A stretch of 58,116 bases of DNA, filler included, from Sphacelaria rigidula (lineage: Eukaryota), in assembly GCA_964200075.2 (NCBI GenBank). It is 8 parts of 8 records of this genome, joined end to end, with 100 filler letters (N's around TTAATTAATTAA, not from the genome) between each part and the next. Parts side by side here need not be neighbours in the genome. Positions count along the whole stretch, not along the records: positions 29,109 to 36,285 come from CAXNAA020016123.1; 7 more parts are not named here. One strand, 5' to 3'. The notes under the pieces are model-generated. The model made no database searches and was not told the DNA's origin. It saw only the letters and a program-made list of their open reading frames with translations. This document shows positions 9,803 through 55,039 of this stretch, piece by piece. The position numbers were made by a program, and so were the translations under genes. Every line of letters starts with the position of its first letter. Position 1 is the stretch's first letter.

Positions 9803-10043
9803 GACACTTTCCACGATAGCCCCCCCTCCCCAAACACAGCCCAGAAGTGTCGAGAAGAAAATGGTCATACAGGCTGCATGAAGCGCCTCATATTGGCGAT
9901 ATTGGCGAGAACCGACCCAAGTGTGGGAAATCCAAGCTGCTCGGTGTGCTTGCTTTTTTCTATTTCGATTCATGTGAACATTTTGCCTCCCCAAACCAGC
10001 CACGTTTTTGTTTTGGGGGGGGGGGGCTATCGTGGAAAGTGTC
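9803..10043. mobile_element. MITE of the GACACTTTCYACGATAGCCCCC-TIR family, full copy
   Basis: 23-bp perfect TIR; 4-bp TSD ATCG (9799-9802, 10044-10047); homologous to 54792-55039 and to partial copies at ~17050-17212 and 17536-17697. Confidence 0.8.
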
Positions 10044-14291: not shown

Positions 14292-14358
14292 CGTACTTAT
14301 TTGTTGCTTCCCTTAGTCGTTTGGCCATTGATCACGCATCCCTTTCGAGACGGAGCAT
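14292..14358 (-). mobile_element. Short poly(C)-site insertion (67 bp)
   Basis: Minus strand ATGCTCCGTCTCGAAAGGGATGCG...AAATAAGTACG flanked by CCCCTGCG / CCCCTCGCG; homologous to 46313-46380. Confidence 0.65.
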
Positions 14359-14662
14359 CGCAGGGGGGGGGGGGGGGGGGGGGTACTCAGGATATTCAAT
14401 GCTCATTTCAAAAGACCATCAACGTCTCAACCTAACAAAACTGGGCGGGACGACNNNNNNNNNNNNNNNNNNNNNNNNNNNNNNNNNNNNNNNNNNNNTT
14501 AATTAATTAANNNNNNNNNNNNNNNNNNNNNNNNNNNNNNNNNNNNNNNNNNNNCCTGTACAAACTGGCTTGTCGATAGGACTCGGGGCTGGTCGTTATG
14601 GGGCCAATCCCCTGTCAAAAGGGGACTGTGAAAAAGGGGAAAATCCCCTTCGTTAAGACAGG

Positions 14663-17049: not shown

Positions 17050-17697
17050 CCGCTTCATTTTCGGAGAACGCCAGGCACCAAGTGCGGCAACGCCTAAAAT
17101 CTTGGCGATCTCCTCAAAAACTGTGTCGATAATAACGGCCCCGACGTGAAGATTTTGCCTCCCGGAACCAGGCACTTTTTTAGGGGGGGGGGAAGCTATC
17201 GTAAAAAGTGTCCGTGGATAGTCAAAACAATAATAACGGATTACCCATCTTCGGCGCAAATTAGCGATAGCTGAATATATATGCTTGGTTTTGACCCGGG
17301 CTATCATATTCGGATCTTCATAGGGCTCACGGCGCCAGCGCGAGGTTCATTTACCACTTGGTAGAGCGAAGAACTTTTTTGGCAATTCATGATCGCTAAT
17401 ACCTGGGGAAAACCTCATCCGCCTGGGCTAAATGTGCAATATCGACAGCTGTCACGACAGCCTGCCGCGAACTGATATATTTACTTCGGCGGTTCTCAGC
17501 CACCATGACTCATGCAACGAATAAATAGTTTAAAAGACATCATCTACGATAGCCCCCCCCCAAAAAGTGCATGGTTTTCGGAGGCAAAATCTTCACGTAA
17601 ATCGAAATGGGAAAAGCCGAGCACAACGAGCAGCTGGGAATTCTCACTACTGGGTTCGTTCTAGCCCGTATTGCCAATATGAGGCGCTTCATGCAGT
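17050..17697. mobile_element. Two partial, oppositely oriented copies of the GACACT-TIR MITE (~17050-17212 and 17536-17697)
   Basis: GCTATCGTAAAAAGTGTC end at 17212; GACATCATCTACGATAGCCCC start at 17536 with body closely matching 54792-54955. Confidence 0.7.
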
Positions 17698-18130
17698 CGA
17701 AGAAATCCTTGATTTATTTCACATCATTTGATCATGTGACAGAGAACGACCACGTCTTTCTTTGCTTTGATTTGCCTTTTTCTCTTCTCTTCATTAATTT
17801 CTGGGGGGGGGGGGGTTCACGTCTCAGTCTACTATGTTCTTCTGTTCTACTTTTTCTGTTCGTTCTTCAGCGAGTGTTTCAGGTTTATTTTGTCTTTGGC
17901 ACGTATATCTTATGGATAATGACCACGGCTGGATCCCTGGGAGGTCAGCTAAAGTGCGACAATCGATCAATCAAATACTAAAAAAATCCTCGTGAAAGTT
18001 TTCTTGAGGGAGAGCGGCTAAACATGTGCACGAGTAGAGGAGGGGTTAACTTGACACCTCAAGTTTCGTGTACACGATCCTGATTGGTCTACAACTGGGG
18101 AAAAATGCTGGCGGTCCCACTGTCTGACAC

Positions 18131-21831: not shown

Positions 21832-24800
21832 TCCCTCGAGAGCATCGAGCGCTTCATTCGCGACAAGGTGACACCCCTTTACGGCAACACGCACACCACC
21901 ACGTCCACAACTGGGGCGCAAACGACGGCATTCCGGGAGGAGGCCAGGGAAATCATCGCCGAGTCCGTCAACGCCAAGGTGAGCAAATTTTGAGACCGGG
22001 CGGAAATTTAATCAATCGATCAATCAAGCGAAGGGGACCTTTTTGTCTGGTGCTCTTACGTATTCTACGTTCGCGCATCTTCCCGATGCCCTCGTCACTC
22101 GTAGGGGCGGTGCATATCGTCAGCCAAGTTTTCGCTCCCCGATGACCTCTCCGAGCAGAATCGCTTCAGCCAATTACTCAAGTCATCTTACAGGACGCGC
22201 ATTATCCAAAAGTAGGCTAATACTTATGAGACTCAAGCATGTCGGACCTTGTCCTCGATGGTTCATGTACCCCGCCGTGTCTGAAATCTCTGGAGCAGTG
22301 CGAAGGAGGCCCCGATGACGACGTGGTTCTTTTCACGGGCTCGGGTACGACGGCAGCGATTGCCAAGGTCATCTCTGCCCTGTCGCTGGACAAGAAGCAG
22401 CACTCGTTTGGTGTGAAAAAAGGAAGCAGGTGTGCTCACGGCCAAGTCTCTCGTGAAGTAGTATCTGTCGAGCAATGAATACTCAAGGTCATGTGAGTAG
22501 GCGTAGGGCAGGTCTAAGCATATCTTACACAGGTGACCAGAGGGGGTATCTCGAGGCAAATGTTGCAACGTTCCGCTCTGTGGTGGGCTGTCCGTATGTA
22601 TATACCGTATCGGAACATTACCGTAAGGTAGTGTCAAGTGCGTATTTAGCATCAACAACTAGCATGAACACCCGATTTCAACAAGGCATGAGACGCAACA
22701 GCATTCGCTTCAATGCACCGCTTGTGCCACCAAGGTAGGTGCAGAGCCCTTCCCGCTGAACGCTGCGCTCCACCGTGACATACGAATGCGCAAACATACG
22801 CGACGCTATATCGTCCGGTATACCATGAGATCGGAAGGCGTTCATTACCATGCCTTCACAGTCTCGTAGATCTCGCATTCGCTGGATTGGGGGAAAAACA
22901 AAAAACGGTATTTTTACGGGACTGTAAGGCTGCAGGTCTGATCAGGCTTGATCAGACCGTGTACCGGTTTAATAAACAGAGTGCAGCTGCCCGTGCATGA
23001 CCACCACGTCACTTACTCATCCGCCATTCGAGCAAGCCTCAACTCAGCTACACAGTCCGGTGAGACGATTGAGAGAGCATTGAACAGAGCGATAAGGAAT
23101 ACGGGTGAACAAGAGTCTTGTAGATCAAGCGGATATCAACCAACCTCTTGCGTGAGGTTGGTGATAATTCTTGGTATGCATGCTGATTTGTACTACGCAC
23201 GGATCCTGCTTTCCGCACGGATGGCCACTGGGGTGCCCGCAACGTCAAATCTGGACGTTACAGACCTTGTGCAACGTCTGCAACGTCCAGATTTGACGTT
23301 GCGGGCACCCCAGTGGCCATCCGTGCGGGTTGTGCACCTTCCGAGAAGCCTGTTGCTTGACTACGTCATCACAACGCACCTATGCTTTGCCCGTTGTAAT
23401 GCGTGAGAGGACCGCGTGCTTGGAGGACCGCGCCGTTCTTCAAAATACCTCAGGATCAACGTTTTTCGAAACCAGTCGGGCCAGTCCCTGCAGGTACCAC
23501 GCCCCTGACCCTAACCCCAACACCAACCCTAACCCTAACCCCAACCCTAACCCTAACCATTGGGATGTTCAAATTCCGATGCGATCCTCTAAGCACGCGG
23601 TCCTCTCACGCATTACACCGTGACTAGTGAACGTGCCACGCACATTGTATGCATAGTAATAATGTATGGTTTCTTCCGCTTGGTCTGCTCGCCCGACCTT
23701 TCGAACCCCGCTCACACAACACGTACCGATGCACCCCAGGCCGGTCGTGTTCATCGGACCCTTCGAACACCACTCGAATATTTTGCCCTGGAGGGAGAGC
23801 TGTGCGGATGTGGTGACGATCGCGGAGAGTTCCGCCGGAGGGGTCGACCTCGACGACCTGGAGAGCAAGCTCAAGGAACACTCCGGTCGAACCCTCAAGA
23901 TAGGTGCGGCGTAGTTGGGTATAGAAGTGCGTGCGTCAAAGGTGCCTCGACCCATTTTGGCTAGCCCTTGTCTGCATCGGGAGACCACGCGCGTCAGGGT
24001 ATAATGCCAATGTTTCGGAAAGCGGACTTGACTGTATTCGGGGAGATATTGACGCGATGAATGTCCGCCTTGCTTGGGTGTACACACGAGTGACGTGGCT
24101 GCCTACGAGTCTCCCGCCGTACACTACATCCATGCCAAGTGCTATAAACAAGAGCGCCTCACGCGCCATCGCATGGGATGTAGGGGCTCGTCTTGTACCG
24201 TGGGTCACGCTCGAACCAGCTGGGTTGAGTTGTGTCGCCACACTACGAAGTATGGTGCTCGACTTTTAAACCGAGGTTTGACCTCAATCGTCTCGTCGAT
24301 TACTTCGTGGTTGGTATCATTCGAGCACTGCTGTGGTCGCCACACCATCTTGCTCAGCATGTACGAGCCATGTCAAAGTACCGTGGTCAGATCATAGCTC
24401 GAATATCGGCTGCGTTGGTGTGTGTGTGTGTGCGTGTGTACATGGCGCGGCGACAACGATTTGTGTCGCGGTTGACAGGTTCTTTCGCGGCGGCATCTAA
24501 CCTAACTGGGGCACTCGAAGACACGGATGTGATCACGGAGATTCTTCACCGCCATGGCGCCCTCTCCTTTTGGGACTATGCGACTGCGGCGCCTTACGTG
24601 GAGATCGACATGAATCCGGAAGCCGCGATGGAGTTGGACAAGGTGAGACTAGGTTGCCTGGGTTTCATTCTAGAAGTACGCGCTACTCCAACCCATGACG
24701 CGGAGATTCCAGGATAGCCTGCGACAATCAATCAACCGATCATTGGGTCGAAAATGACTTGGAGCCCTTGCAATGCGTGAGAGGACCGTGCCGTAGTTCA

Positions 24801-27800
24801 AAACACCTCAGGATCGATGTTTTTCGAAACCAATCGGGCCAGTCCCTGCAGGTACCACGCCCCTGACCCTAAGCCCAACACTAACCCTAACCCTAACCCT
24901 AACCCTTACCCTAACCCTAACCATGGGGATGTTCAAATTCCGATGCGGTCCTCTAAGCACGCGGCCCTCTCACGCATTACAGCCCTTATCCCCTACTCCC
25001 GTGTGAGCACAAGGTCGTCTGCACTACACTGTATTTCTTGGGACGAAAGAACAAGATGGAATGATCCCTCTAAATTCACGCCCGCGCAAACGATCTCTGC
25101 CACAACCCAAGTCATTGCCTCTCTTCGACGTCTGCGCATGCTATGCACTGCGTCACGCAGCCTCTACTCGCCAAGGACGCCGTTTTCATATCTGGCCACA
25201 AATGTCTCGGCGGTCCTGGCACTCCCGGCCTGCTCGTGTGCAAAAAAAAGCTGTTCATCAATTCATCGCCGGTGGTGCCCGGTGGCGGCACGGTCCAGTT
25301 CGTTACCCCAAGAGATCACACGTATCACACGTGAGTTCGGGGGCAACGCCACACAGTTGGTACGGAGCATGCCTGCGGATAGAGCGCGTGTAGCGTGAGT
25401 GATGCAGCACAGTATGTTTTACTCGCCGGATAAATGAAAATGTTCCGAACGCTATTTCAACAAAAGGACGGCGACGTCGTTTCTCAAAGACCAGACTTCA
25501 ATAACTAACCCTCTCACCCCAATTAACCAACCTCGAACAGCAATATCGAGGAGCGTGAGGAGGGGGGCACCCCGGAAATTCTCGGGGCCATTCGCTTGGG
25601 CCTAGTTTTCCAGCTGAAGGAGCGATTGGGAAGCTTAGAGGTGAGTCTCGTGAGGGGGCCGGGCCTATGTTTTGTAGACCAACACACAAGCCATGTTTTT
25701 CAAGTATGCTACTCATTAAGCAGACCCTAGGCTGAACGTGCAATGGTTTCAGATGTGGTCTGCCATCTGAAAATTGTGCCTGCTGCGTGTACGTTATACT
25801 TGGCGTCACCTGAAGATGACTTATTGACACAAGCCGAGTAATGGACACAAGCCGAGTGATTGACACAAGCCAAGTGATTGGCGCAAACGATGACTTTCTC
25901 ATGCGGTCGGGTTGGGTAGAAACTGTGAATGTTTCAGGTACCGGCTGCCTGATACTTTCGAATTGGGTGCCGTAAAGCGAGAGCGGGCTCCAGTGGACGG
26001 CGGCGACCCCGCGCAAGTCACGTGTTCATCGAGACTCGGAACGAAATAACCAAGCACAGCATCCAACACCCGCGCCTTCGATGTCTAATCACCAACAAAC
26101 ACCGGCGTTGTCTCGCAGGAACGGGAGGAATACCTTACTCATCTGGGGTTGTCTACTCTCAGGGCACACCGTCGGGTCGTTCTGGTTGGCGATACAGGCA
26201 GGAAACGCCTGCCGATTTTCTCCTTCCTTATCCGCCACGGCGACAGGTCAGTGGAGTTGGCGCAAGGCTTGACCCAAACAATAGATGGAGAAGTCATCCC
26301 AATATTTTACTGCGCGTCGATAGATGATCTTCGGTTCCACACGCTCCGAGTGCATGCGTGGGGGGCGTACATGATCTGAACCACAGCACGCAACAGCATA
26401 TCCCTTGCATGAAACAAAGTGTATAAAGCTGTGGAGTGCAGTCGGCGAGGACACCGCCATGGGACCGGTGCAGCATATTGTATGGTTGAGTCCCCGGTGC
26501 CCCGCGTCAAGGTAAAATGAGCAGGCCTCAATGTATCTGCCGCACGATGTATAGTATTCTCTAGTGTAACAGCCTGGGCACCTTTACCCCCCCTCAACGG
26601 CAGGTTCCTGCACCACAGCTTTGTGTGTAAGCTATTGAACGACCTGTTCGGGGTGCAAGCTCGGGCTGGATGCCAATGCGCGGCACCGTATCACATGAGA
26701 CTCCTGGGAATGCCCGCAAGCACGGTTCCGAAGGTTAAGCAGCAGGTGCTGGACGACGTTGGCATCATCAAACCTGGCTCTTGCCGCCTCAGCCTGTCGT
26801 TCTTCATGTCCGATGCCGAGGTACGTGAGGCGCCGTCAGCACGCGGGAAACTCTTCGCGAACGTAGTATGTATACATACATACACACATATATAGAGAGA
26901 GATATGTGCATGCCGTGTCTTGACCACCGACACGATCATATGGATGATCAAGTATGGCACCGACTCGTCATGTTGACTCTGTGGGCGTTCAGGTAAAGCG
27001 CCCCTTTAACGTAGACCGGCAATATATGCAACTACAGAAATTATGCTGCGGCAAAAAGCCGGGTCAAACTTATGATGCCTCAGTCGGCATGTTCGCTACC
27101 ATGTTCCCAGGGCGCGGCTTCAGGCACGCGACCCTAGTTACGCTTACACTGTGGAGTACCACGGCCGTAGGAACAAAGGCTACAGCGCCGGCAATAATCT
27201 AGCTCGTGAGAACCGTTTCCCCCGTCAATTGCCCACTTAGCCCCCTCCTTCCTACCATGGCAGGTTCAATACATCCTGGACGCCATCCTGTTCATCGCGG
27301 ACTACGGGGCCTGCTTCTTGTCCCAGTACGAGCCCGACATGACGACGGGCGAGTGGACTCACAAGGATTCAGTGGTCAACAGCCCCCCAAGGTGAGTGAA
27401 GCATCCAGGCCAGCAATGCTGTCCCAGGTACTATGGTGCAAAGTAGGCCTATTGTTGGGCCAATGATGGAGAGAGGAAAAATAGCAGGGAGCGCGCAGCA
27501 TACCATAGAGCGCAAATAGTGTCAAATCGACGGTGATAGTTTGTGCTCAAGGTTTTGGAACAGGCCGAAACTCATAGAACTCGGACTCATGAAGCGGTTA
27601 CTTACATGCTGCTGGAGTCGGAAAAGACGCCCGGTTCTCAGCACCGGCGAAGTGCGACTAGCGCGGCTACCCTGTCGTGGCCAAGCCGTTGCGGTAGTCG
27701 GGAAAGTTCAACGTTACTCGCTCGGGCGCTCTTTACACTTACAATCCAACATCCAGGATCACTCATCAGCGGCCGTCTTCGGTGGTGACCTCACCCTCAT

Positions 27801-29008: not shown

Positions 29009-29142
29009 NNNNNNNNNNNNNNNNNNNNNNNNNNNNNNNNNNNNNNNNNNNNTTAATTAATTAANNNNNNNNNNNNNNNNNNNNNNNNNNNNNNNNNNNN
29101 NNNNNNNNCCCCCCCGACCATGACCACAGAACATATACACAT

Positions 29143-29189
29143 GCGAGGTCAATGGTCTGATGACTATGGCAGGCATGATCATGAGTACA
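29143..29189 (+). mobile_element. Short poly(C)-site insertion (47 bp)
   Basis: GCGAGGTCAATGG...ATGAGTACA flanked by a ~34-bp duplication Cn-ACCATGACCACAGAACATATACACAT (29109-29142, 29190-29224). Confidence 0.75.
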
Positions 29190-29823
29190 CCCCCCCCCAC
29201 CATGACCACAGAACATATACACATCGGACCCCAGAAATTTGGTTATCGGATTTCAATCTTGTATGGCATGCAGAAATTGGTGATAGCTATCGGCACGTGA
29301 AGGGATGCAGGCATATTACGAAAAAAAATTATCCACATATATGAAGATTGTAATAAACCGACTTATCATCGTCAATGAAAACCGTTGTCCTCAATTTTCG
29401 CGATCGGTTGTTATCACACCAAATATTCGTGGCGGTTCGCCCGCTGTGCAGAGCGCTATGAACGCCGCCTCACGACTGCAGTCCACGCGCGTGTGGTGGT
29501 CGTGTTGCACAGCATTCCATAAGGTTCTCTGCAACACCGCATTTTGATCATCATTTTCGCTTCATTAGTCGTTCGTTCCACTATTATAGTATCACACATT
29601 ATCTTGAGATACAACCGGCGATTCGCCCAAGGGTGTCGCCGGATGACCCGCCGTAGACGTCTGCACACAAGGGCGCACTGCATCAGGCACTCTACAACGT
29701 CCCCATCAACCCTACGCACGGGTTATAACTTCCGTCCGCTGAAGATAACTCCCACGGTTACACACACACATATATATATATATATGTTATATACCTACGC
29801 GACTCATCTGCAAGAAACATGTC

Positions 29824-32800
29824 TACGACTTTCGAGACAGGTGCAATCGAAACGCGAATTCGTCGTCGTAGTCTTTGCCCGCTTCCGATGCCGAATCCTC
29901 TTCCTCTGAGTCGCTATACTCGGAGTCTGAATCTCCAAGCCAGATCCCGGCTCAATGCTTCGATCTGCCCTCTGGCGGACCATCTAGACCGCCGTCGCAA
30001 CAACTGCGACTCGTAGGATCTGGTCCCGGATCCAATTTCCCTCCCGCTACACTCGTCGGCCGCACTCCTCACCACGACTACTATGAACACCTGCCCCCGG
30101 GGCCTTCCTCGCTCCATTCGCCTGCCCCCCGCCACGCAACGCCGCTGACCCGCCCCTTCCACGGTTCGCCGTGGATCCGGCCCTCCCCTTACGACGTCGG
30201 CGGGACGTATCGACATTTCCTCCGGCGGAATCACCTGTAGCAGTAGCGTCGGCCGCTGGGTCAGGGCGTGGCGCCGGTTGCATGAAGAGTTACTTGAACA
30301 CCTGCGGCTCCCTCTGCATCATCGGTGTCGCCTGGTGGGGGAAGTCGAGGATGAGAGCACACGGGCGCGGATGATGTGGGGTATACACTCCGTTAGACAT
30401 TTGTCCACCCTCACACCTTCAACCCATGCCACTCTGCGAGGTGCGCACGTCGCACCATGGAATACCTCCCGCTGCGCGCGAGATTTAATCTTGCATCGGA
30501 AATAGGAGAAGCACTCGTGCATTCCCTGAAATGTTTCCACAAATTCTTCTTCTCCTAATCTCTTGCTCGTGAATTGTTTACGATGCATTCTCAGTACCGG
30601 GTAATAAACGCAGCAACGGCATCTCTAGGGCTTTCGAATCTGCACCTTGCCAACCTACCCGGTACGAGCAAATACACTTGGATTACCCGTGCGCGGCGTC
30701 CGCGCGAAATTATGTCATCACCTAACCCTAACCCTGGCTCAAGTGCAAACAGCCTGATGTTGATGCGAGCTCAGCTCCAAGATCTAAATATTATCATGCC
30801 AGACGCAATACTGCGCTCCACGCACAGGTGCGTGATCTCGCCATCTTTCGACACTAATATCCCGACCAACTACTGAGCATCCCAAAATTGCCGACTCTGT
30901 TCACCTGTCTGAGTTCGATCTCCAAGCAAGTTTCGATGTGGCCACCGCGCAACGGAATGCTGCATCGTCGAATACCGAGAGGAAACGCTCCCATTGCTCA
31001 CCATCCCTGTGCCAGGAGGGTCCCGTCGTGATGTCCGCGGCGACCAGATTACCTTGCCGGCGGTGCGCGTGCATGAGCGATGGATGCCCAGGCACAATCT
31101 CCACGACCACGCAGGTGGCCGCTATAGTACTTACATGTGCCCCGACCCCCGTGACACTCGTCGTCGGCCGAAAATCGCAGTTGTCCCAAGGAATCGCAGC
31201 GACCCACAATGCGAGGGCCGTGACATGTCTGTCCATCCTCCACTTCACGTAGAACTGTTCCCGCTTGTACCGCATCGACTCTGTCATGCAGAATCCATGG
31301 GCGGCTACGTAGCCGATGACAGCCACGGTTGTGCCGTGCGTTTTCAACACCTGCGCCAGATGGAAGTCGTGCATTGCTCGAAAACCTCGGCCTATAACAG
31401 TTTTGACGAGGTTTTGCACGAGCATGTACAGTCTCCCAATCCGCCTCTTCCTCTTCTTCATCTTCTTGCGCAGCGCCTTTTCCCGCGGGGTCGATCCGTG
31501 TGTTCTTGCGCTGGCGCGGAACATCGCCGATCCCCCTTGAGCTGCGCCCCCGTGTTCCTGTTGCGCCGTTCCACCACTAGACCCGCCTGCGGTGCCCATC
31601 AAACCCGCCCGCCATCCCGCGCCGCCGACATGTCGACATCATCCGCCCCAGCGGTGCGAGGCGCGTGAACAGAATCCCCTCACCTACCGCTCCTTGCTTC
31701 ATCCACTGTCGGAAAAAGCAAGTCCGGATCATCACTCGATACTTGCAAATGGCACAGACTGCTCAGCAATGCCAACAGTGCCGGCGGCGTTTCATCCGTT
31801 AGAAATTGATTCATGGGTCTAATATTCCTCGATATGTCCGCGGCGTATTGTTGGTCCCTATCCCCCGATACGTTCCTCAGTTCGTGTGCACTTTCGATGT
31901 CCACCCTGACGATAGACCCAGCCGCTATGACCACGGCCCGTTTATCCTCCTCCGAACCGGCCGCTGTCACCCGCTGGAGTGCGTGTTCAATAGGCTGACC
32001 AGCCTTGATCTCGGCGGTGAGGCGGGAGACAGAACGCTCCAACTCTCGTACCCTCGTACGCATGTTGCGCAGTTGAACGTCGGCCGCAATGGCTCCCTCG
32101 GGCGCCACCACCGAAGGAACGAGATAGATGAACTTGCGTCGCCCATCGCATACAGCCGCATCAACCCCGCTTCTCTTCTCAAGCTTGGCGTCGACTGCGC
32201 CATCCGCGGCCACTGCATCGACAATTCTCAGCGCTTGCTCCCTGGTGCGCTTGTCTAGAACAGCCCGGGCGTTCACTGCGGTTCTGGCTTCGGTCAACCA
32301 GGATTGAACATCCTCCACTCCCACTTAACGCCCCTCCTCAACGGTCGCAATCACTTTTCGGCGTACCTCTGCAACAAAGCCCGGCTCGGCAGAGGTAGGG
32401 GGGGTGTCAAACCGACAGTCACGGGTGTGCAGCTAACCGGAGGAAGGGAATTTGCCTTCCGTCTAGTACTCGTTATCCTGTGTCGATCCATGGATCGCCA
32501 CCAACAATCATGCCGGCTACACAAGCAATCTGAAGTCGGTTGATAGTTTTTCACAAGCGCAGCCGTGCGTGCACCGTCATCATCCGCACACGACTCCAGA
32601 AATTGCCGAGTCTCCGTGATTCGCGCCGCGCCAAGATGACGCCAGATATTGCTTTCCCCGGGCCCTGGTCGATAGCAGGCGAAGCACAGTCGCGTTGCCG
32701 GGTCGTGTACCTGACCGCAAGAAGAGCACGTGTTGCATTGCTCGTCGAAGACGGGGAACTGCATGCCACACACATCACGATTGCAAACCGGCTTACGTGC

Positions 32801-34002
32801 TTTCCCCCTCCTCACTCCACTAACCGGGGTAGGCCCTGCCGGCGCAGCACGCACCCCCCTGCAGCTACCATGATTCCCAGAGAGACTTTGAAAACTACTG
32901 CGTCGCGTCGTCAAGCTCCCTCTTTCACCGCGCGCGCGATGTTCACCATGATCAGTATCGGGAGGTGTTGCCCCGCGGTCGGGATGCATCATTAGCTCGC
33001 TGGCAGCCCCGTTCGTAGGCGCCGGCGCTACCTGCTCTTGCTCCGAACCCGCGCAAGATGAGCTGCCGACACCAACTCTGCATTGGTCGACCCCAGTGGC
33101 GGCAGCATATGTAGCCTTCTTTTTTTTCCGCTTCGATTTTGACGCCGGCGCGCCTGCACGAGTTGGTCGCGAGGTGCATGGTGAGCCTGGTCGCTTGTTA
33201 CGGTGTCCCGACGGCGTGGAAACCTCCCCCGGTGAGCCCCGAGTAGGACCCCGTCTTGAGTTGTATGGGGATACGGACATCGGCATTTCCTCGGAAGATT
33301 GTATTGCCAGCAGCTGATCCTCCCTTACGCCGTTTCTGTGCTGCAACGCCGCCTGCTGTTGTTCATGCCACGCTCCCCATACGGTGTCAACCTCCGGCTT
33401 ATTCGCCGCGGTTCTCTTCCGCCTCGATGCATGTGCGTCAGCATGTGGTGGTGTGCCCGTGCCGGATTTGGGCGGTGTACGTCTTTTCTTGGCCTTGGCC
33501 GATGGAGTTGAATTTTGTACCTCCGGGGCCCTACCACCGGCAGCTCTCCCGATTTCACGGGGGGTATTACCCACTTCCTTGAGAGGTACTGTCGGCGGAT
33601 TCCGTGGTAACACCTCCCGTACATTGTTTTCTGAGGCCGAGGTGATGGAAACTTCACGAGTCGCGCCTTCCCCGGCCGATCGAAATTTGAAGTTACTGCC
33701 TTCTGCACTCGGATGGTCATTGCACCCCTCCAACCCCTGCTTTTCTACAGATGCGCCATCACTGGATGCGAAGGACGCCTCCGGCGCACTGAACAGCACA
33801 GTCGCTGTATCTTTTCCGTAGGAGCGGGAGCTCAGCCACTTTTGCGGTTTGACTCGTTCGACGGTGTGACCCTCGGCAATGTCCTTCACATTTTCCACCG
33901 GTGCTGCACATTCGGAGGGCGTCAGGGGAGATCCACTTTCAACCGCGGATGTGGCATGTGTCGGTCGGGATGAAGGCGACAGTGGTGCAGACACTTCATT
34001 AC
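29824..34002 (-). pseudogene. Frameshifted large transposon-like gene: low-complexity N-terminus, Cys-rich domain, Academ/DUF6589-like transposase segment, acidic tail
   Basis: Consecutive ORFs 33994-32351, 32324-31680 and 31602-30901 in three different frames; acceptor at ~34003; CxxxxC...CxxCxxC...CxxC cluster; LAQVLKTHGTT...HGFCMT...WDNCDF resembles the DNxDF catalytic-Asp region (from memory, not searched). Confidence 0.5.
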
Positions 34003-36153
34003 CTGCCCGGAATAGACGGGAAAATGATAGATTGACCCAACGTATCAGTCATGCAGTCTTATTCGTTTTTTGATTGCAGAAGACACGGGTTCGTGTGAAG
34101 TGATGATATCCCGGAACGTAGGCATCGTCAATTTAGTTCAAATATCACAGTCATCAGCGGGAACAAGAGGAAAGCAGTCAGATGAGGTAGGTCTTCAGCA
34201 CCTCTATTTCGCACGGTAATAGTGCACGAGGGATGTCGGGGTGCTCTTACCTCGAGACCGATTGCGGTGCCGTATCTCACGTTCGGTCTGCCCCGGCCGG
34301 CGTCTCAAAAGTGCTCCAGACGTTGCACCCCAACTGTGAGTCTTGGGTATCTTCCACATCTACGGTCAGCGAATGCGCGGGGGAGTGGATGCGTGTAGGA
34401 TCGCACGTCAATTATTTTTATTACGGATGTCTTCAATCGTGCGGTTATCGTGCTGTACTGTCAAACGATAACGGGGCTTGGGCTGGCGCACCATATGCGA
34501 CTGTTGGGTAGGTATTGCGAAAGGCATTTGCTGATGACACAATTTTGGGTGAGAAGCGTAAACCAACCTGCAGGGTGTAGGCGACGAACGGCCCTTGAGC
34601 AGTTTAAAACGTGAAATCATGCCGTGTCAGAGAACTCGATGAGAGGACGCGGTATTCAGAGGCGATAACAAAAGCACCTGATGGTGTATTGCTGGATAGT
34701 ACTTTGGAACACTGCCCACCGTGTCCATCCAAAGGTGCAATATACTGCGTGCTTCCGTCGTTCGATATACACTTGACGAGGTACGTTCCAGTAAAACGTT
34801 CAGTGGTGTTCGTATTAGCCCCTTGTGATGTGATAGGGGTGAAATCCCCTTGTGAAGGGTGTAATGGTGTTCACCAACATTGTTCCAAGGTTTAGACCTC
34901 TGGGTGCGTCGTTGGTTTACTCAGCTCAGCAGCGCAGGCTGACCACACTCGCTCTCGTGTTGCTTTCACATAAGGAGACAACAAGCAAATAATGCAGACC
35001 AAAATAGCACTTTTATCACGCAATTGATTGTATCCAAATTCATCTACAGAACAGGGAGATACAACGCAAATCGATTTAAGCCAACACCGAAATCAATAAA
35101 ACACACCAGACAAAACAGCAGCCCGACTACTGCTCTTGTCTCTGGGACTCACTTTCTCGCGGTTTGTAGATACTCCAACGAGGAACTGTTGGGTCGCAGC
35201 CGAAACCGGGAATGAAAAGAGAGTGGCGTCGTAGGGGCTGCTATTTCGAACGTGTTTCGCCGCCCCCCCTTAAATCAACATAAGCTAACGTCATATCATA
35301 AAATCCCAAAGCCGTGCTCCTCTATTCATGCCGTGGTTGGGTCACCACCTTTTTTTCGATTTCAAATACATGCTCTTCGTAGAACGTCAACCTCAAGGGG
35401 CAGCGAAGTCTCCGCTAATTGAACATGAAAATGTCCATCATCCAACGTCACCTTTGCCCAAGATCATGGCTACGTCCTGCAGTCACATCACATCACACCC
35501 TGAATATGTCTCCTTGCTTCTTTTCCCTGACACCATATATATGGTTTCGTGTTTCGGGTCGGTCAAGTGCCGCTTGCCGCTTACATCCTGTTGGCAACGC
35601 GCGCGTAGCACTCAGGTGGCGAAAATGAAGACAAATATCATCATTGACTCGATTGTTTTTTTAACGGAGAATATTTTCCATACAGAAGAGGCTTGTTCGA
35701 TTCCTTCTGTGAGTATATGTGGTTACTTCGGACCATCGCTTTGTGAATGGGTCTCGTTGATTGGGAACGAGAACCCGTTCCGCGTACACCTCTTAGCGGA
35801 CAAACTATTTGGCTCCTGTATGAATGAAGTGTTGCGTATCAAGTGTTGTCCGTTCTTTTTCAGTGGATGCCAATCACACCTAGGGTTTTTTTTTCGTACG
35901 CTCGTGAAAGAGTCATCCTACGGTAGGGGAGGGGGGGGCATTCTGGGCCACTTCTTACACGAAATTCCAAGACAAATCGCCGCTGAAATCAGCAACGGTT
36001 GCTCGAACTAGCTTGTTATAGATACATAACGCTAATTCATACCGATTGACACCGTTTTGAACCAAATACCAGCGCATCGCGAGTGTTCCAGGTCATCTGA
36101 CACGCTTTTCAGCCTTTTTTTTCGTGCAATCAATTCCCCCCCCCCCTATGCTG

Positions 36154-36193
36154 CAATGGTCTGATGACTATGGCAAGCATGATCATGAGTACA
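36154..36193 (+). mobile_element. Short poly(C)-site insertion (40 bp)
   Basis: CAATGGTCTGATGAC...ATGAGTACA flanked by a perfect 10-bp duplication CCCTATGCTG (36144-36153, 36194-36203) at a C11 run. Confidence 0.75.
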
Positions 36194-36385
36194 CCCTATG
36201 CTGGTAGAGAAAGAGATTGCCAGCTATAGTTGATAGGGCTATATGGAAGAAAAGTACGATAGTGCAGGCTGGAGTAAGGTGGGATNNNNNNNNNNNNNNN
36301 NNNNNNNNNNNNNNNNNNNNNNNNNNNNNTTAATTAATTAANNNNNNNNNNNNNNNNNNNNNNNNNNNNNNNNNNNNNNNNNNNN

Positions 36386-36752: not shown

Positions 36753-39700
36753 CTACTTGTCACCTCCCAAGTTCATGAAAAAACGTCTGCGTCTCGTAAA
36801 CAGGTTGATCAAGAGAGGTTTCATCGAAATATCAGCATGCTGCCATCCTGAGCCAACATGCACAACCCTGGCCTTTCCCGTCCCCAGCAGCTCTCGAATG
36901 AAGTGGTATCTTCATCTATGTGCTTACTCCTTTCGGAACTGAGGAGATTTTCGGCCAGAGCTTTTTCTCCCTCGTTGTCCTCGTACAAAACAATACCCTG
37001 GTCCTCCCCGCATCACGACACAGTCTGAGGTCGCAGGAACGTCAACACTGCCTTTACAAACAGTCCCTCGTTTGCCCCCTCGGATATTGCGACATACTCT
37101 GCCTCCGTAGTTGACAAAGTCACTCAATGTTGCGTGCGGCTCGTTGCCGACACTACCACACCAACGTACATTACGGCTACCCCTGATACCGAGCGCCTAT
37201 TCGTTCCCTTTTTTTACGTAGTCTGCATCGCAGTAAACTGAGAGCCTTTCATGTCCTTTCTTGGATGTAAGGCCAAACTCTTTCGTCTCGTCGAGAGATA
37301 CCTCAAAACTTCCACCACAGCTTCCCAGTGCCTCTCGCACGGATCATGCGACTGACGAGCGAGCGCTCGTACCGAATTCGCGATGTCGGGTCTGGTGACT
37401 GTTGCCGGCCATATCAGTCCCCCCACTGCGTTACGGTATGGACGATTCACCTTTTTGTCTTCGCCCGTTGTCGGCCCCAATTTTACAGAAATAGAGGTAG
37501 GAATTTCCAAGTACCCCCTCACCTCAAAACGCTTTAGGAGCATGTCCGTGAACGTGGTTTGCGTCACGGACAGCGTGACTCTATCCCAGTCTCTATCCAC
37601 TGCGCACTCCATGTATCAGGCGACCTCGCCGAGATTGTTCGTGGGGAACTTTTTGTTCAGGATTTTGCCCACCTTTCCTACGTTTTCCTCAGAACCACTG
37701 ATAAGGATGTCGTCCACAGGGACAACTAAAATCACACGTACGTCTCCTGCATCCTCCATCCCGAAAACACATGGGTCAGCCTTACACTGCACCATCCCGA
37801 CATCCTCCAGTAAAGTTTGGCACAGAGAACGATACCACTGCCTACCCGTTTGCTTGATCCCGTGAATAGATTTTTTCAGCTTCACGGTCATGTCTCTGTC
37901 AAAACTGAGTAACCTCAAGGCAACCTCATGTGTACGTCGGTATCCATCTTTGCTTGAACGAAAGCATGTGTCACGTCAAAATGATACAGCGGCCTCTCTT
38001 CCTGAACTGTCACTGCCATGACCAGTTTGATGGAGGCCATGGAAGGCGTTGCCGCGAAAGTCTCGAAATAGTCGACTGCAAAACGTTGTCCTAATCCTCG
38101 TGCTGCCAACCTTGCCTTTCCCTTCGTTGCAGCACTATCTGCGTCAGTTTTCCAACTAGAAGCCCACTTCGCTGAAATCACGTTTACTCCTTCCGGTACA
38201 GGGCCAGTCCAAAATGTTCCAGCCTTTTCATGATCGCCTAGTTCGGCCTGCATCGCACTTAACCATGCCTCTCGAAACTCTGATTTTGCTATGACATCCA
38301 TACTGGTGGGTACTGCCTCTATTTCGCTTACATGTAGGTCAACCGGTGAACGCAAACCGAATCCAGGCTGCCCTACTCTGTTTTCCTCAGCAACAAAACA
38401 AGAAAAACTCTTTTTCGGCTAACTCGTTTTGAGTCGAGGCGATTGCGTCTTGTCGGGCCACCTGTCCTGCTGCCGCGGTGATCATCTCCATGGTTGAGCA
38501 CTTGTCCTCCGCCATTCCCGCCAGCGCCATCTCCGCTTCCCTTTTGCTCTCCTCCGCTCCGCTAGCCACGAGCGTTTCACCTCGTGCGTGTGCCGATCTC
38601 ATGGGCTCGCGCGTTTGGCTCCTCGTACGCCCCGCCCTTGATGCTGGTAACCGGTCGGCCCACGCAAGACGGCGTTGCTCGGTCCTCGGGAGTTGAGGAG
38701 CGTCGCCGCCCCCCCCGCCGTCTTGCGAGGGACCCGTGGAAGAGGGTGACAGTGCAGGGGACGAGGGAGTGTCCGATGCCGATGTGAGCGTCGGCGTAGG
38801 TGTCTGCGCTGGTGTCAGCGTCGGCGTACGTGTCGGCGTCTGCGCTGGTGTCGGGGTCCGCGCTGATGTTGACGTCGATAATGATGATGATGATTCCGGC
38901 TCCGCCTCACCCCCTCCGTTGACGAAATCTAGAACGGGGATCTCTGGTATCATACCGCTTCCCCCCCCCCCTCGCGCGGACGATGAGGGCACTTTGCCCC
39001 CTCCACTACTCAAGGGGATCTGCGGTGCTACTCCGCTCCTCACACCCACGGAACTCGGCGGGGAGGACGGCGTGCTCGAGGAACTGCTGGACGAAGTATC
39101 CACTGTCGAGCTTTCCGTCATGTCTTCACTCACACCCTGGCTTTGATCGACGCTGGAATCATCAGCTTGCCCGGCGTATGGATCGCTTGCTGTAGTATGT
39201 GTGGGGGGGCAGCGGACGGAGGTGCCCATGTTACATGCCTTGACACGGTGATAGTTCCTCGTACAGTCAAAACGCGTACCGCGTCACGTGGGTAGCCTGG
39301 GGCTGGGCTCAAGTTCCAGCATTTTTCGGCCCTCGGCTGTAATTTATTTGTCTGCTTCCTCCTACAAAACCTAGGCTTCACGAACGGAATGAGATCACCG
39401 TCCGGTGGTGATCCATACCACATATCATGCGGTAATTTATGGTGCGGGTTAGCCGAGGTAGCGGTACAGTTCAGGGCGTGACACGCCCAATTTGCCTGTT
39501 CAGCCCATAGGCCTTCACCATTTGGGATGCGCTCATTTGGGTACAGCTCAGGTGCTTGGATGCTGGCCGCAAGGCCTGCTGTTTCGATGGTACCGCACGC
39601 TCGCTCTGCCACACCGTTGAACCGGGGTGAATCTGCAGTTGTCTCCTCCTGCTTGATCTTTTCCCTGTCGCACAGTTCACCAAATGCACCCTGCGAGAAT

Positions 39701-42266
39701 TCACCCCCGTCATCGCTACGGACAATCTCAATGTTTCTCGGAAAGACCCATGCAATGTATTTCGCGAAGTATTTCTCTGCCTCATACTTCTTCCGGAGGA
39801 AATACAGCTTTGTGTGCCGTGAGTGATCATCTCAGTCTATCATCGTGTACGACTTCCCCCATAAGACTTGACTGGTTTCGGCCCAGAAAGATCTACAAAC
39901 ACCCTGGACGCTGACTTAGCTACTCTCGTGTGCGTCGATCTTAGAATCGGCGTTCTCTGCCTCATCCTTCTTCCGGAGGAAATACAGCTTTGTGTGCCGT
40001 GAGTGATCATCTCAGTCTATCATCGTGTACGACTTCCCCCATAAGACTTGACTGGTTTCGGCCCGGAAAGATCTACAAACACCCTGGACGCTGACTTAGC
40101 TACTCTCGTGTGCGTCGATCTTAGAATCGGCGCCCGCAGTCCCTTCGCCTCTGAGCAGCCGCGTCAGGGCTACAGCTCCCCAGCCAGCTGCTTTTCCTGC
40201 TGCTTCGCCGTCTTTCGCAGTACATCCTCGTGGACATGGGCGTGGGCACAGTGAAATTCGTTGATGTTGGCGACTTGGGGGCTAGGCGAAGCCCCCGGGT
40301 CAATAACAGCATATGCCGAAGCACACTTGTCACTACCACTTTGGTCGAGGCGGCGGGCGTACATTTTCAGTTGACGCGGTTGTCCGGGTACTAACAGTGT
40401 ATTGCCTGAATTGAGATCTACCCTAAAACCTGTACGAAAACCAGTGTAGGTGTGTCCTATGTGTTGGACCCTCGTGAGTGACAAGAGGTGATGACGGACA
40501 CGAGGTACATGGTCAACATCCACTAATTTCAGGATAACATCCTATCCGTCAGATGTGAAGGCAAGAGACAAATTTCCTCTGCCTGCGATCGGGTAAGTAC
40601 TACCTCCTGCGCACCGTCGTACCCTACCCTTGCACTCTCTGTACTTCGTCATCCCACGGGAATCGTGGGAGAAGTGCTGGGTAGCCCCCGTGTCAAATAC
40701 CCACGGTTCGCCCTCACCCTGCTGACTATCACCCCCTGCCCAACATTCAATGCATACTCGCCTGTGTCACTATTGATGGTGGTGTCGAAAGAGGTGAAAG
40801 CCTCCCCATCCATCACCGAACCAACGGAGGAGCTGCCGCTGTCGTCGGCCGCGCCCATCGCCATCACCACGTCTTCTTTCTTCGCTGTCGATTTCGGACA
40901 GTCCCAGAATGTGTGCCCCTGCTGACCGCACCTCCCGCAGTATCTCTTTGGGCAGTTCCTGGCTCGGTGTGTCGTGTCCTCGTCGCAAATGTGGCAGCGG
41001 AGCAGCTTCCCAGTCACCGGTTTGCCGTCCGACGAGGCAGACCCATAGCTAGTTGAACTCTGGCTCCCGCTGTTTTTCTGACCAGAGCCATGGGGTTTCC
41101 CGCTTTTTCCCTTGCGGTGTGCACCGCTCGGTTTTTCGGTCCCACCCCTCGCAAGGAGAGCCTGGTCGCCCGGGGATGGCCTCTTTCTCCGGGCAAGTTC
41201 CTGCTTCAAACATGTCGATTCGAAGAGTTTTCGGATCGAAGTCAACACGACCTCCCGTGTCAGCGGTCCCTCTCGATCCTTCAGCAGTTGCTTCTGAATG
41301 TGATACTCGAAGGGCAATGCATTGAGGAATTTCAAGAGGATATGGGTTTTGCTTAGTCGTTCATGCTCCTCGTATGAGTTAAGGTTACGTGCAATTTCCT
41401 CCATCTCGGGCAGCTTCTGCTCTGGATCATCACGGACGCCAATCTTGACTCCATCCAACGTTTCCAACAAAGCGGTTCTCGCACCATTTGTTTTGGGGCG
41501 AGAGACATCCCCGACCTTTCTTCAAAGCACATCAGGTGAGTGGACTCTGACAAAATATCTTGTCCCCTTTTTCCTTCTAAAGTAGCAACAAGCATCCGCC
41601 TGGCCCTCACGTTGGCTGCCACGGTGCCCTTCCCGTGTCTACTTTCCAGATACCCCAGCGCTGTAATTCAGAGTTCGCGGCATCTACGTCGTGCGAAGTA
41701 TCGCCGGCCATGGTAAACACCCAGTCAATTTCTTCGGCTCTCGCGAAGTTGACCATCTTATGTCTGTACCGAGCATAATCAGCGTTTTTCCCTGAGAATA
41801 TTGGGACGTTCTGTCGAGAAACGGGAACCCTTGACACATTTCCACTTGTTCCGTTTACTTGGATTGACTCACGTGCGGGGACACAGCCCCTAGCTCCGTC
41901 ACTTGTGACCTCGTTGTCGGTTGCGTCGCGCGCCCCTTCCTCTGGAACAGCTTGACTCCCGATGTACCGTTGGTCTCTTCGAACTCCGGCATCACGTCGC
42001 TCCACTGTTGTATTCGAATTGAATCCCCCCTGTCGACTATGGGAACCATCACTATCGAGGACGCCATTGGTGTTTGCGCCCCCGGCCTCTTTTTCTACCC
42101 TCATATCGTCCATGTTACTCTGTAATTCAGCTTGGTTTAGCTGTAAATCGCGCATTGGCTGAGCCATGGAACTCATCTGACCATTCACCTCCCGCAACTG
42201 CTCCATAAAACCCTGCTCACCGATTACTGTAGCAGGCCTACTACCCTGTTCTGCCATTCTGCCCAC
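36753..42266 (-). mobile_element. Decayed Ty1/Copia LTR retrotransposon (gag-PR-IN-RT-RNase H)
   Basis: Two CCHC knuckles (CHIC..H..C, CGRCGQQGHTFWDC); protease WVFDTGATQH (~40670-40705); GAG-pre-integrase; integrase AERACGT; RT KARLAARG, FDVTHAFV, LKKSIHGIKQ, PVDDILI, TRPDI; RNase H RSKHID..YHFIRE. Many stops and frameshifts; LTR pair not identified. Confidence 0.95.
39773..40132. repeat. 180-bp tandem duplication inside the Copia integrase
   Basis: 39773-39952 vs 39953-40132, about 2 mismatches. Confidence 0.95.
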
Positions 42267-42526: not shown

Positions 42527-42570
42527 GTGGTCGATGGTCAAACGACTAAGGCAAGCAACAAATGAGTACG
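42527..42570 (+). mobile_element. 3' part of a poly(C)-site insertion
   Basis: GTGGTCGATGGTCAAACGACTAAGGCAAGCAACAAATGAGTACG followed by a C-rich tract; left TSD not visible. Confidence 0.6.
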
Positions 42571-44198
42571 CCTCCCCCCTTCCCCCCTCTCCCCCCCCCC
42601 GAAAATGATCGAAGGCACGTGCGGACGGTACTTCCCTCGGGTTCTTGTCGCATACTGGCTAGCCTCCTCAAACCTCATTTCATTGATCAACCTCACTTTA
42701 TAGAATCCCCTGTTACTTGTCCCCAGCTACCACCGAAACCCTGCGGCAAAGAGCACGAGCTAGCAACAGGGATATAGGTACACTCTGCCGTAGTTGGATA
42801 TTATGTATTTTATGTTGGTCAAACTTTGAACTTGAGCATCTTCTTTCATGGTCGCGGCATCGCACGGCGACCAAACAACATACGGTAGGTTGCGGGCAAT
42901 AACCGGCTTATTGCATACACACTCAATCATGGACAGTGCAGGCAGTACAAAGCTGCTCACGCTGTTCAAGTCCCTTTCACGTCGCATTGTGAGCAGAAAA
43001 TAAACGTAGCCCTGCCCTGTCTGTACCGTATTTTGCCCGCCTCTCTTTCGCGTCCTACTGACTGCAGTTGTGCGCATGCTGCAAAACCGTGGTGATGTAT
43101 AATGCAGTAGCTGACGGTATATAACACCCCCATATATCCAAAGTTATAGATATCCATTTTGAATGGCTACACGTAGCTCATACGCCGCGCTATCTCTGCC
43201 ACATATTGCACCTCACGTATATAAGCACGATATGGTACTGTCCTGCACGGTATTGTACTGTCCAGTACAGCACTAGAGCAACGCTACGGTAGGGATGCAC
43301 TTTTTTCGCGATTATGTCTGAGGTCTCCCCGCGCTGTGTTTTTGGACATGTGACATGTGAATCGCGCGTGCAACCGTCAATCCGGCCCAAACCTGAGAAA
43401 GTTCAAGTAATTAGTGTCTCATCTCCAACAGCAGTTGCTCCCCTGCACCTAGACATGTTAATATACCGAAATTCGTACCTGCGTACAACCCGCACTTTAA
43501 CAACAAATTGTGAGAATTGAGGTTTAACTTCGAGATGAGGCTCAAGCCTAAAACAGTGCTTTNNNNNNNNNNNNNNNNNNNNNNNNNNNNNNNNNNNNNN
43601 NNNNNNTTAATTAATTAANNNNNNNNNNNNNNNNNNNNNNNNNNNNNNNNNNNNNNNNNNNNCAACTCTAAATGTATAAAAGAGCATGGGCCTGCAAACT
43701 TCAAATCCGCCTCTAGGCTGGCCCAGCTCGTATACACCAGGTGAAATCTTGGTTAACTTCTTGAGACTAACTACAGGTTCATCTCGAAGAACGCGAGGCG
43801 TCAAAAAGTCCGTATATATATATATATATATGTATTGAATATCTAGTGCGGTATCCACACATATATTCAACAATGAATCATCAATCAACAATTTTCAGCG
43901 TCACCGCGGTAACCTACGGACTACTGTAAAAATAATAATGAATTCTGCATACTTCTGGATTTCATTCATTCACGACGATCGAGGCGAAAAAAAAAAACGT
44001 TGGGATACACTTCACAATGAAGAAAAAAAAAACATTCAAGTGAATTGCTATGGTAGTGCGCTACACTCACGACAAACCAAACTTCTCCAAATATATCGCC
44101 AGGCGAGCTGCATGCTCTGAATAAAAATGCATTACACTCATCGGTCGATGAGACAGGATGTGGTAGAACATGACCGTATACTATCGGGGTACACTTAC

Positions 44199-49872: not shown

Positions 49873-51112
49873 CTGTCCACGACAAGATGCATACACATTG
49901 GCGCAAGCATGCAAACACGTACAGTTTGTGGTTTTCACCATCGAAAAGGTATCTGGTACGATGAGCGTGAGGGAAGTCGTTCTACAGCTTGTTCTGGAAT
50001 ATGACAATTGTATGTACTTGATCGGGTTGGATTTTTTCCAGGCTAGGTCCAAGGGTGGAGGCAAAGAGCAGGGAAACGACGTGTGATACGACACATGTAC
50101 GTACTTGGACACGCCAACACTTCGTGGTATATTCCATAATTGGTTGGTTGGTTGACTGATTGTCGTCGCACTTTATATGACCCCCCAGGTAGTCATGATC
50201 CAGCCTTGGTCATTATCCACATGATGGACGTACACATGGTGGAAACAAAATGGGAGCATTCGCTACAGAGAGGTGAAGGCAACAGAGAGGTAGGACAGGG
50301 CAGACAACCAAAAGAAATGAAAGGGGAAAAAAACCCCGAAAGATCAGAACAAAACAACTAGAAATGGTCGGCCTATGCCGCATAGATATATATCAAAATA
50401 TGTATTTTATAAATCAAGATGTGAAAAAAATGAAAGGCAGTCAGGTTTCGAAGCAGTATCTCGTCCACCACTGACGGTAGCCCTACCCTCTCCAAGTATG
50501 ATTTGGTGTGGCACGAACATCGGGGGGAAAAAATGTGTGTTACAATCAAATCGGTTGGTATCCAACCCACGTCATGAAGACCCTTGAAGTGAATGAAAAG
50601 AGAAGACGAAGACGAAGACGAATCAAAGTTGCAGTCGCATCAATGCAGTATCTCGTCCACTACCATACAGGCTGGTTCACGGTAATCACCCCAACATTGT
50701 GTCATCAGCAAGTGCCTTCCGCAATACGCACCCAATAGTCGCATATATGGTATCATACTGACCGCAATGAAGAAAAGAAGAGGGTGACATAGCTGGATTT
50801 TTGTTCAAGGCCGTAGCGGTGGCGCTATGGACGAAAATGNNNNNNNNNNNNNNNNNNNNNNNNNNNNNNNNNNNNNNNNNNNNTTAATTAATTAANNNNN
50901 NNNNNNNNNNNNNNNNNNNNNNNNNNNNNNNNNNNNNNNATGGGTCCCAAGATATAGAGTTTTTCCCGCCAGGTGCCTTAAGCGTATCTTAATTGGTACA
51001 TTTCCCCCTACACTGGCTCCTCGCAAGTAGCTTTACCACTATAGTGCAAGCCTCTGCTTAACTGCCCAGTGAAACAGTGCCGTGCCAGGGAATAATTTCC
51101 AACAGGTTGTGA

Positions 51113-54791: not shown

Positions 54792-55039
54792 GACACTTTC
54801 TACGATAGCCCCCCCCCCAAAAAAGTGCATGGTTTTGGGGGCAAAATCTTCACGTATTTCGAAAGGGGAAAAGTCGAGCACAACGAGAAGCTGGGAATTT
54901 CCACGCTTAGGTAGGCTCTAGCCGATGTCGCCAATATGAGGCGCTTCGTGCAGCCTGAACCCGAAGATCAAGCACTGTATGGCCATTTTTTCGTGACACT
55001 TTTAGCTGGTTTTGGGGAGGGGCTATCGTAGAAAGTGCC
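54792..55039. mobile_element. GACACT-TIR MITE, full copy
   Basis: GACACTTTCTACGATAGCCCC / GGGGCTATCGTAGAAAGTGCC; flanks CCAG / TCAG. Confidence 0.8.

Follow-up and report, generated by a model that had tools for sequence, protein, structure and literature searches.

Five short related sequences lie in the window, by which we mean the whole 58,116-nucleotide stretch of DNA analysed here, filler included; it is eukaryotic-looking and repeat-rich, and consists of eight excerpts of 7177 bp with N runs and a TTAATTAATTAA linker between them. The five are copies of 40-69 nt that fall into two subtypes, A and B, and their sizes and 5' ends were taken from the alignment to a longer reference copy (L002), which was recovered from metagenome contigs and is described below.

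29143-29189, plus strand: c29, subtype A, 47 nt (49 if the AT common with the target-site duplication is counted), ends GAGTACA
36154-36193, plus strand: c36, subtype A, 40 nt, 97.5% identity to c29
42527-42570, plus strand: c42, subtype B, 44 nt, 43/44 identical to L002
46313-46380, minus strand: c46, subtype B, 66-68 nt, translates to an ORF C-terminus plus TGA stop
14292-14360, minus strand: c14, subtype B, at most 69 nt, 91% identity to c46, stop codon TAA instead of TGA

When the core pattern ATGGTCNNNNGACTNNGGCANGCA is allowed up to two mismatches it has five matches in the window, against a mean of 0.01 in shuffled sequence, and none of 100 shuffles reached five. Positions 48728 (TGAGTACGTCC) and 24076 were also examined as further copies and turned out not to be copies; altogether, 5-6 copies in the window and two outside it were looked at in detail.

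As for the surroundings, a Pfam scan that took in 151 of the 186 stop-to-stop window ORFs of at least 90 aa found a CBS domain and weak others, next to two coding features:

49675-50172, minus strand: ABC_membrane exon
37619-38418, minus strand: RVT_2, a Ty1/copia-type reverse transcriptase (E = 3.6e-16 and 8.3e-11, two frames)

The closest relatives of the ABC exon are brown-algal (Undaria with 85% identity, Ectocarpus species with 75-76%, Chrysoparadoxa with 69%), and the host is accordingly a brown alga or something very closely related; 'algae metagenome' is among the labels of the public runs that contain this DNA. Since the RVT_2 match is split over two frames, the copia copy is probably degraded. 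Neither a LINE reverse transcriptase nor an endonuclease domain was found among these 151 ORFs of the window, and Rfam, at gathering thresholds over the whole window, gave no matches; readings of the short copies as a sarcin-ricin-loop rRNA fragment, C/D snoRNA, hammerhead or tRNA-like RNA were dropped once an ORF had been found to run into the motif. The window further holds two interstitial arrays of the telomere-type unit CCCTAA at 23503-23558 and 24861-24922 (9-10 units each, about 1.3 kb apart), as well as long-unit tandem repeats at 39773-40132, 47108-47552 and 51911-52164, with units of 180, 118 and 129 bp, 2-3.8 copies and 93-98% matches.

Ends of the copies and their target sites

All five copies share a fixed 3' end, RAGTAC plus one base and then C. 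The junctions read AAGTAC-G-CCCC in c14, GAGTAC-A-C9 in c29, GAGTAC-A-CCC in c36, GAGTAC-G-CCTCCCCCC in c42, where a C-rich tract of 30 nt (42571-42600) lies directly 3' of the copy, and GAGTAC-T-C7 in c46. The C strand has the same orientation relative to the element in every copy, and C follows the element in both metagenome copies too (5/5 in the window, 2/2 in the metagenome). The 5' ends do vary: counted from the fixed 3' end, they lie at 40 (c36), 44 (c42), 47-49 (c29), 66-68 (c46) and 69 nt (c14). No poly(A) was found at the five copies, nor does any of them have an inverted partner in the window. A preliminary description of this DNA, made from the sequence alone, had listed five related copies at these same places, with a fixed end of RAGTAC plus one base at a C-run, a differing 5' extent and neither TIRs nor poly(A), all of which was borne out, the extent being 40-69 nt by alignment to L002; the two subtypes that it distinguished are real as well (A comprises c29 and c36; B comprises c42, c46 and c14).

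In four of the five copies, the flanks carry target-site duplications (TSDs) that start in a C-run. The three longest are laid out as follows:

29109-29142, plus strand: left TSD copy of c29, C7-G then 26 nt
29190-29224, plus strand: right TSD copy of c29, C9 then the same 26 nt
36136-36153, plus strand: target of c36, a C11 run plus TATGCTG, the last 10 nt of which (36144-36153) are the left TSD copy
46381-46396, minus strand: 5' TSD copy of c46, CCCCCCCCTCCTCAGC in element orientation
46301-46312, minus strand: 3' TSD copy of c46, CCCCCCCTCAGC in element orientation

The duplication at c29 measures 34 bp and is identical at 33 of 34 positions (29109-29142 versus 29191-29224); as its left copy begins at the excerpt boundary, further C may lie upstream. 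At c36 the match is 10/10 (CCCTATGCTG, at 36144-36153 and 36194-36203), at c46 the 12-bp duplication has a 3-nt indel in the left copy (46381-46396 versus 46301-46312), and at c14 it is about 8 bp long and imperfect, while neither a TSD nor a 5' C-run is visible in the flanks of c42. The four C-anchored duplications of different lengths that had been reported earlier are therefore present, at about 8 (imperfect), 10, 12 and 34 bp, each beginning in C.

So is the C-run a target, or is it a tail? At c36, eight additional C lie 5' of the left TSD copy, giving C11 on the 5' side versus only three C after the element. These eight cannot come from the element, which means that the target C-run predates the insertion. 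Moreover, the TSD takes the last three C of this pre-existing run, and this anatomy suggests that the G strand was nicked inside the homopolymer. It could be argued instead that the C-run is the element's own templated (C)n tail, that the sites were not chosen for homopolymers, and that the C with which the TSDs start is misassigned tail. In most contigs the element is indeed followed by a long run of C (9 plus 17 or more), the end is followed by C8 and C11 in L001 and L002, the two metagenome contigs, and a curated table of Ectocarpus repeats annotates '(C)n 3'' (PMC12477816). However, the run at c36 belonged to the target, C8 and C20-21 stand on the 5' sides of c46 and c14, respectively, and in the available entries of that table the notes of the curators extend to 'C-rich' TSDs and to '(C)n termini/TSD' (PMC12477816). 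The runs on the 5' sides may be the tails of older copies, yet insertion would have taken place into C-runs all the same. As such, an explanation by tails only is improbable, and the C-run is both target and tail.

Empty sites were sought in two ways. No paralogous one was found within the window, and at c29 and c36 the contigs of four public runs contain no joint that removes the element plus one TSD copy, a signal swamped by repeat copies and hence uninformative on polymorphism.

The ORF that ends in the motif

Scanning metagenome contigs with a 23-base pattern brought up two, L001 and L002, each of which contains a homologous sequence that is much longer and closes with the subtype B 68-mer. 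This sequence holds a 209-aa ORF that is open at its 5' end and runs into the motif. The stop codon is a TGA inside AATGAGTAC, 4 nt before the element end, after which come G and C8 (L001) or C11 (L002). The 68-mer encodes the last ~20 residues, ...NGAPSRKGCVVNGQ.TKASNK, and only GTAC plus one base separate the stop from the (C)n run. Both c14 and c46 translate to the C-terminus of this ORF, and the change from TGA to TAA in c14 keeps a stop codon.

While Pfam assigned none of its families to the 209-aa C-terminal pieces, a search with the ORF among longer proteins yielded nine matches, of which two are full-length, P0002 (1360 aa) and P0005 (1328 aa). Each combines two domains in one protein: Exo_endo_phos at about residues 140-390 (E = 3.4e-12 in P0002, 8.1e-15 in P0005), together with Exo_endo_phos_2, and RVT_1 at about residues 710-990 (E = 9.8e-31 and 1.7e-32, respectively). 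These endonuclease (EN) and reverse transcriptase (RT) domains were seen in protein relatives that carry the motif's ORF, not within the window copies. The relatives have a common C-terminus, ...NGAPSRKG(C/R)VVNGQMTKASNK, a CxC...H....C knuckle follows the RT in the ORF of the autonomous element, and among solved structures those of L1 ORF2p (E = 6.6e-21) and R2 reverse transcriptases come nearest.

With the motif being the 3' end of an EN-RT LINE ORF, the tiny insertions are extreme 5' truncations of an APE-type LINE with practically no 3' UTR. The traits of such a LINE are found together here: an RT of LINE type, an AP-type endonuclease, a fixed 3' end, variable 5' truncation and variable TSDs, and no LTR or TIR. 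We are therefore quite confident that the short copies arose by extreme 5' truncation from a non-LTR retrotransposon of brown algae; a non-autonomous partner with the same 3' end probably contributed as well. The preliminary description had proposed a retroelement on account of the fixed 3' end, the 5' truncation and the variable TSDs, and had suggested following the copies in the 5' direction to an RT ORF and its type of endonuclease; the parent found here is an EN-RT LINE, with an ORF that runs into the motif, a C-run after it, and an APE-type EN plus RT in its relatives.

Two other origins can be set against this LINE. Filler DNA, for example cDNA of an abundant transcript, might be captured during break repair at fragile homopolymers, with no dedicated endonuclease involved; the insertions are indeed very short, homopolymer sites are prone to breakage, and c42 has no TSD. 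Conversely, a 3' end fixed to the nucleotide in 5/5 copies, a constant orientation with respect to the C strand, TSDs of 10-34 bp, and a sequence that coincides exactly with the 3' end of an EN-RT element make capture very improbable. Even less credible is the motif as the TIR end of a DNA transposon with an inverted partner, which the preliminary description had named as the finding that would overturn its proposal. Inverted repeats with subterminal C-runs do occur in the window, in a family that is unrelated, but the five copies lack any inverted partner, their TSDs vary in length, and the motif is coding, lying where a LINE ORF has its 3' end; the missing partner and the coding motif rule this origin out for practical purposes.

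The same C-terminal peptide is also met in annotated genes, as the gene models P0006 (Ectocarpus sp.) and P0004 (Sphacelaria rigidula) both end in it. A third protein, P0007, from a metagenome, continues with ...MSTPSPPPSP, ...QQMSTPSPPPSP, in a frame that crosses GAGTAC into the C-run. All three are chimeric predicted proteins that end in the LINE C-terminus: among them are a lipase with a LINE tail and a Gypsy-NADAR polyprotein with a LINE tail, and one reads into the poly-proline of the C-run. They look like annotation artefacts caused by the LINE.

Subtype A, neighbouring copies and C/G homopolymers

L001 and L002 share 97% identity over their last 60 nt and 65-85% over the coding sequence that lies upstream, which suggests that not only the protein but also the RNA is under constraint. 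A three-part hairpin, with different tetraloops and then a single-stranded tail of ~13 nt, is predicted in both subtypes. Its folding is no better than that of shuffles (z -0.8 to -1.55) and shows no convincing covariation, so that a common 3' hairpin in A and B is no more than a suggestion.

What distinguishes subtype A from B in the tail is a 1-nt indel. The upstream part of A, known as a 30-nt consensus of loose-end contigs, resembles B, apart from an in-frame TAG and a spacer that is longer by 5 nt. Given the indel, the spacer and the stop, subtype A is not colinear with the ORF, and its source may be either a non-autonomous partner or a second family. Contigs of the four public runs were placed on 29109-36285, where the summed depth, which is not a copy number, reached ~1.7 million in the bins with c29 and c36 versus ~3,000 in mid-excerpt bins. 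In X1, 135 contigs extend subtype A in the 5' direction, and 116 contigs have at least 17 more C after the element. Contig joints of the form element-(C)n-few bases-element were also seen, in which the second copy starts at varying positions.

It is quite possible, if on the doubtful side, that the short copies, especially subtype A and the third type described below, derive partly or wholly from SINE-like elements of the RTEX-N type, which would borrow the 3' tail of the LINE and be mobilised by the same enzymes. The tail indel, the longer spacer with its in-frame TAG and the very high depth over the subtype A copies all fit such a source, and in the entries available of the Ectocarpus table, RTE-X has abundant partners of 188-607 bp that share the 3' 60-100 bp (PMC12477816). 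On the other hand, the subtype B copies are colinear with the ORF and a full subtype A element was not recovered. Furthermore, the coding lineage of P0007 reads ...MSTPPP across the end, and subtype A could accordingly be the tail of a second autonomous family. For the copies as a whole, truncation of the LINE, probably along with a partner, is the reading we retain.

Three further features adjoin the short copies:

14383-14430, minus strand: possible copy of a third type, ends ...GATGGTC...CCTGAGTAC; weak similarity, without the hairpin
14363-14382, minus strand: C20 run (G on the plus strand) between the third-type copy and c14
36206-36285, plus strand: longer 5'-truncated LINE copy, coding, ~aa 1108-1133 of P0002, ends at the excerpt end (tblastn 36208-36285, E ~1e-4 to 9e-6; contig loose ends before 36206)

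The third-type candidate ends in TGAGTAC at 14383, followed by C20, and lies directly upstream of c14, its sequence being visible up to the excerpt end at 14454. Only C20 and TG separate the two, resulting in a tandem arrangement at 14292-14430 in which the C20 run reads both as a tail left by the upstream copy and as the site into which c14 went. The LINE fragment at 36206 starts 2-4 nt past the right TSD of c36. Here it appears that c36 landed in a C-run just 5' of this LINE copy, and that run is plausibly the C-initial TSD of the longer copy itself.

Long C/G homopolymers are common in the window, with 15 runs of at least 10 versus five for A/T. When runs of at least 7 are counted, all four bases are in excess (A 17, C 20, G 14 and T 15, versus ~2.5-4.3 expected from mononucleotide shuffles), and C/G dominate only among those of at least 10. 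LINE copies are touched by 7 of the 34 C/G runs of at least 7. About eight of the window's C/G runs are accounted for by the unrelated palindromic family mentioned above, with units of ~240 bp at 9803-10043, 54794-55037 and 17144-17212 with 17536-17598 (also 17792-17815). Its terminal inverted repeats have the form GACACTTTCCACGATAG-(C)7-12-AAAAAGTGCATGGTT..GGGAGGCAAAATCTTCACGT, with a C-run 17 nt inside each end, and it looks like a MITE-type DNA element.

The LINE tails account for a class of tiny repeats (40-70 bp) in a brown-algal genome, and also for some of its surplus of long C/G homopolymers. Copies of this size are likely missed by ordinary repeat masking, and they can enter gene models, as in P0004, P0006 and P0007.

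A model of integration and its relation to known elements

How would such an element come to lie in C-runs? We modelled the mechanism on L1, which acts at TTTT/AA, and on RTE elements with microsatellite tails; in this model, a G-run would be nicked internally and a (C)n tail of the RNA would serve in priming. The endonuclease would nick the G-rich strand inside a C/G homopolymer, whereupon the exposed oligo(G) 3' end could pair with, or abut, a short (C)n at the RNA terminus and prime reverse transcription. The latter would mostly abort within 40-70 nt, and a staggered cut of the second strand, 8-34 bp downstream, would create a TSD that starts with C. The C-runs of older copies, whether tails or TSDs, may in turn serve as new targets, leading to tandem and nested copies.

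A more far-reaching version of this model holds that the endonuclease is homopolymer-specific inside (G)n, that templated (C)n RNA pairs with the nicked strand, that a signal for recognition by the RT resides in the last ~60 coding nt, that the lineage is old, and that it is a main source of long C/G homopolymers in brown algae. Under this version, the age would follow from the same C-terminus being present in Ectocarpus, Sphacelaria and this genome (with its ABC exon closest to Undaria), and the role as main source from each copy seeding the next target. We put this combination forward tentatively, as something that may well hold but towards which we lean slightly on the sceptical side.

Mammalian L1 nicks at TTTT/AA and has a poly(A) tail, and structures of its ORF2p, such as 8uw3 and 8c8j, are at hand. 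Like the element described here, L1 combines an AP endonuclease with an RT and inserts into the tails of older copies, with 5' truncation and variable TSDs; its tail can base-pair with the homopolymer where the nick is made, as we propose for the (C)n tail. In contrast, L1 has two ORFs and uses an A/T homopolymer, whereas here there is one ORF and the homopolymer is C/G. Moreover, the tail of L1 is made by poly(A) polymerase, while the present one is presumably templated or slipped. If true, a LINE that nicks in (G)n and pairs it with a tail of (C)n would provide a natural counterpart of the A/T rule of L1, and would offer a system in which to probe tail-target complementarity versus endonuclease specificity in the site choice of LINEs. 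The R1/Tx1-group LINEs Waldo, Mino, Kibi and Koshi, also APE-type, insert into simple repeats that match their own 3' tail; these belong to other clades and have di-, tri- or tetranucleotide targets, unlike the (C)n seen here.

RTE-X is a Repbase class defined by RT phylogeny. Classical RTE elements are not known to carry the CxC...H....C knuckle, which is present here downstream of the RT. The RTE elements described in the available portions of two studies, from Lepidoptera (PMC2887409) and from plants and animals with Au-like SINEs (PMC6007223), have extremely short 3' UTRs of SSR units and frequent 3'-partial copies, and the first base of their TSDs correlates with the 3' microsatellite (PMC2887409, PMC6007223). 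Shared with the present element are a single ORF with AP endonuclease and RT, a very short 3' UTR that ends in a simple repeat, many copies consisting of the 3' part only, a first TSD base tied to the 3' repeat, and the seeding of simple repeats in the genome. The RTE repeats reported there are di- to pentanucleotides, whereas here the repeat is the mononucleotide (C)n and the 3' UTR measures ~4-5 nt.

Closest in habit are the RTE-X LINEs of Ectocarpus, to which the element corresponds by its features, that is, by the common (C)n habit and the host group, a match made by description. In supplementary file 1 of PMC12477816, RTEX-1_Ec32 (5867/5511 bp) is listed with a 'single EN-RT ORF; (C)n 3'' and a 'C-rich' TSD, and RTEX-2_Ec32 (5582 bp) with '(C)n termini/TSD'. 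The same source gives RTEX-N2 as 188 bp and RTEX-N1 as 607 bp, which 'can be present in tandem' and has a '60 bp 3' end 83% RTEX-1_Ec32/RTEX-2_Ec32', and the other curated Ectocarpus LINEs in it end in (CAA)n (RTE) or (CA)n (CRE) (PMC12477816). Its main text, as far as available, describes Ectocarpus LINEs as often 5' truncated and RTE-X as the most abundant group; the term 'C-rich' is absent there, and the poly(C) habit is confined to the supplementary table (PMC12477816). The preliminary description had taken a poly(G)/poly(C) target to be undescribed, and on this point it has to be corrected, as the table already notes it for RTE-X (PMC12477816). In the literature we found no mechanistic study of the habit, which is on record solely as notes by the curators; because it is on record for Ectocarpus, the discovery is a modest one.

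What the two have in common, then, is a brown-algal host, a single EN-RT ORF, a (C)n 3' end, C-rich TSDs and frequent 5' truncation; the C-terminal peptide is likewise found at the end of the gene model P0006 from Ectocarpus. The partners of Ectocarpus RTE-X occur in tandem and have the 3' 60-100 bp in common; in this genome, tandem copies are seen at 14292-14430 and in contig joints, and subtype A, judging from its 30-nt consensus only, looks non-coding upstream. What sets the present copies apart is the species, and their length of 40-69 bp, far shorter than the families listed for Ectocarpus.
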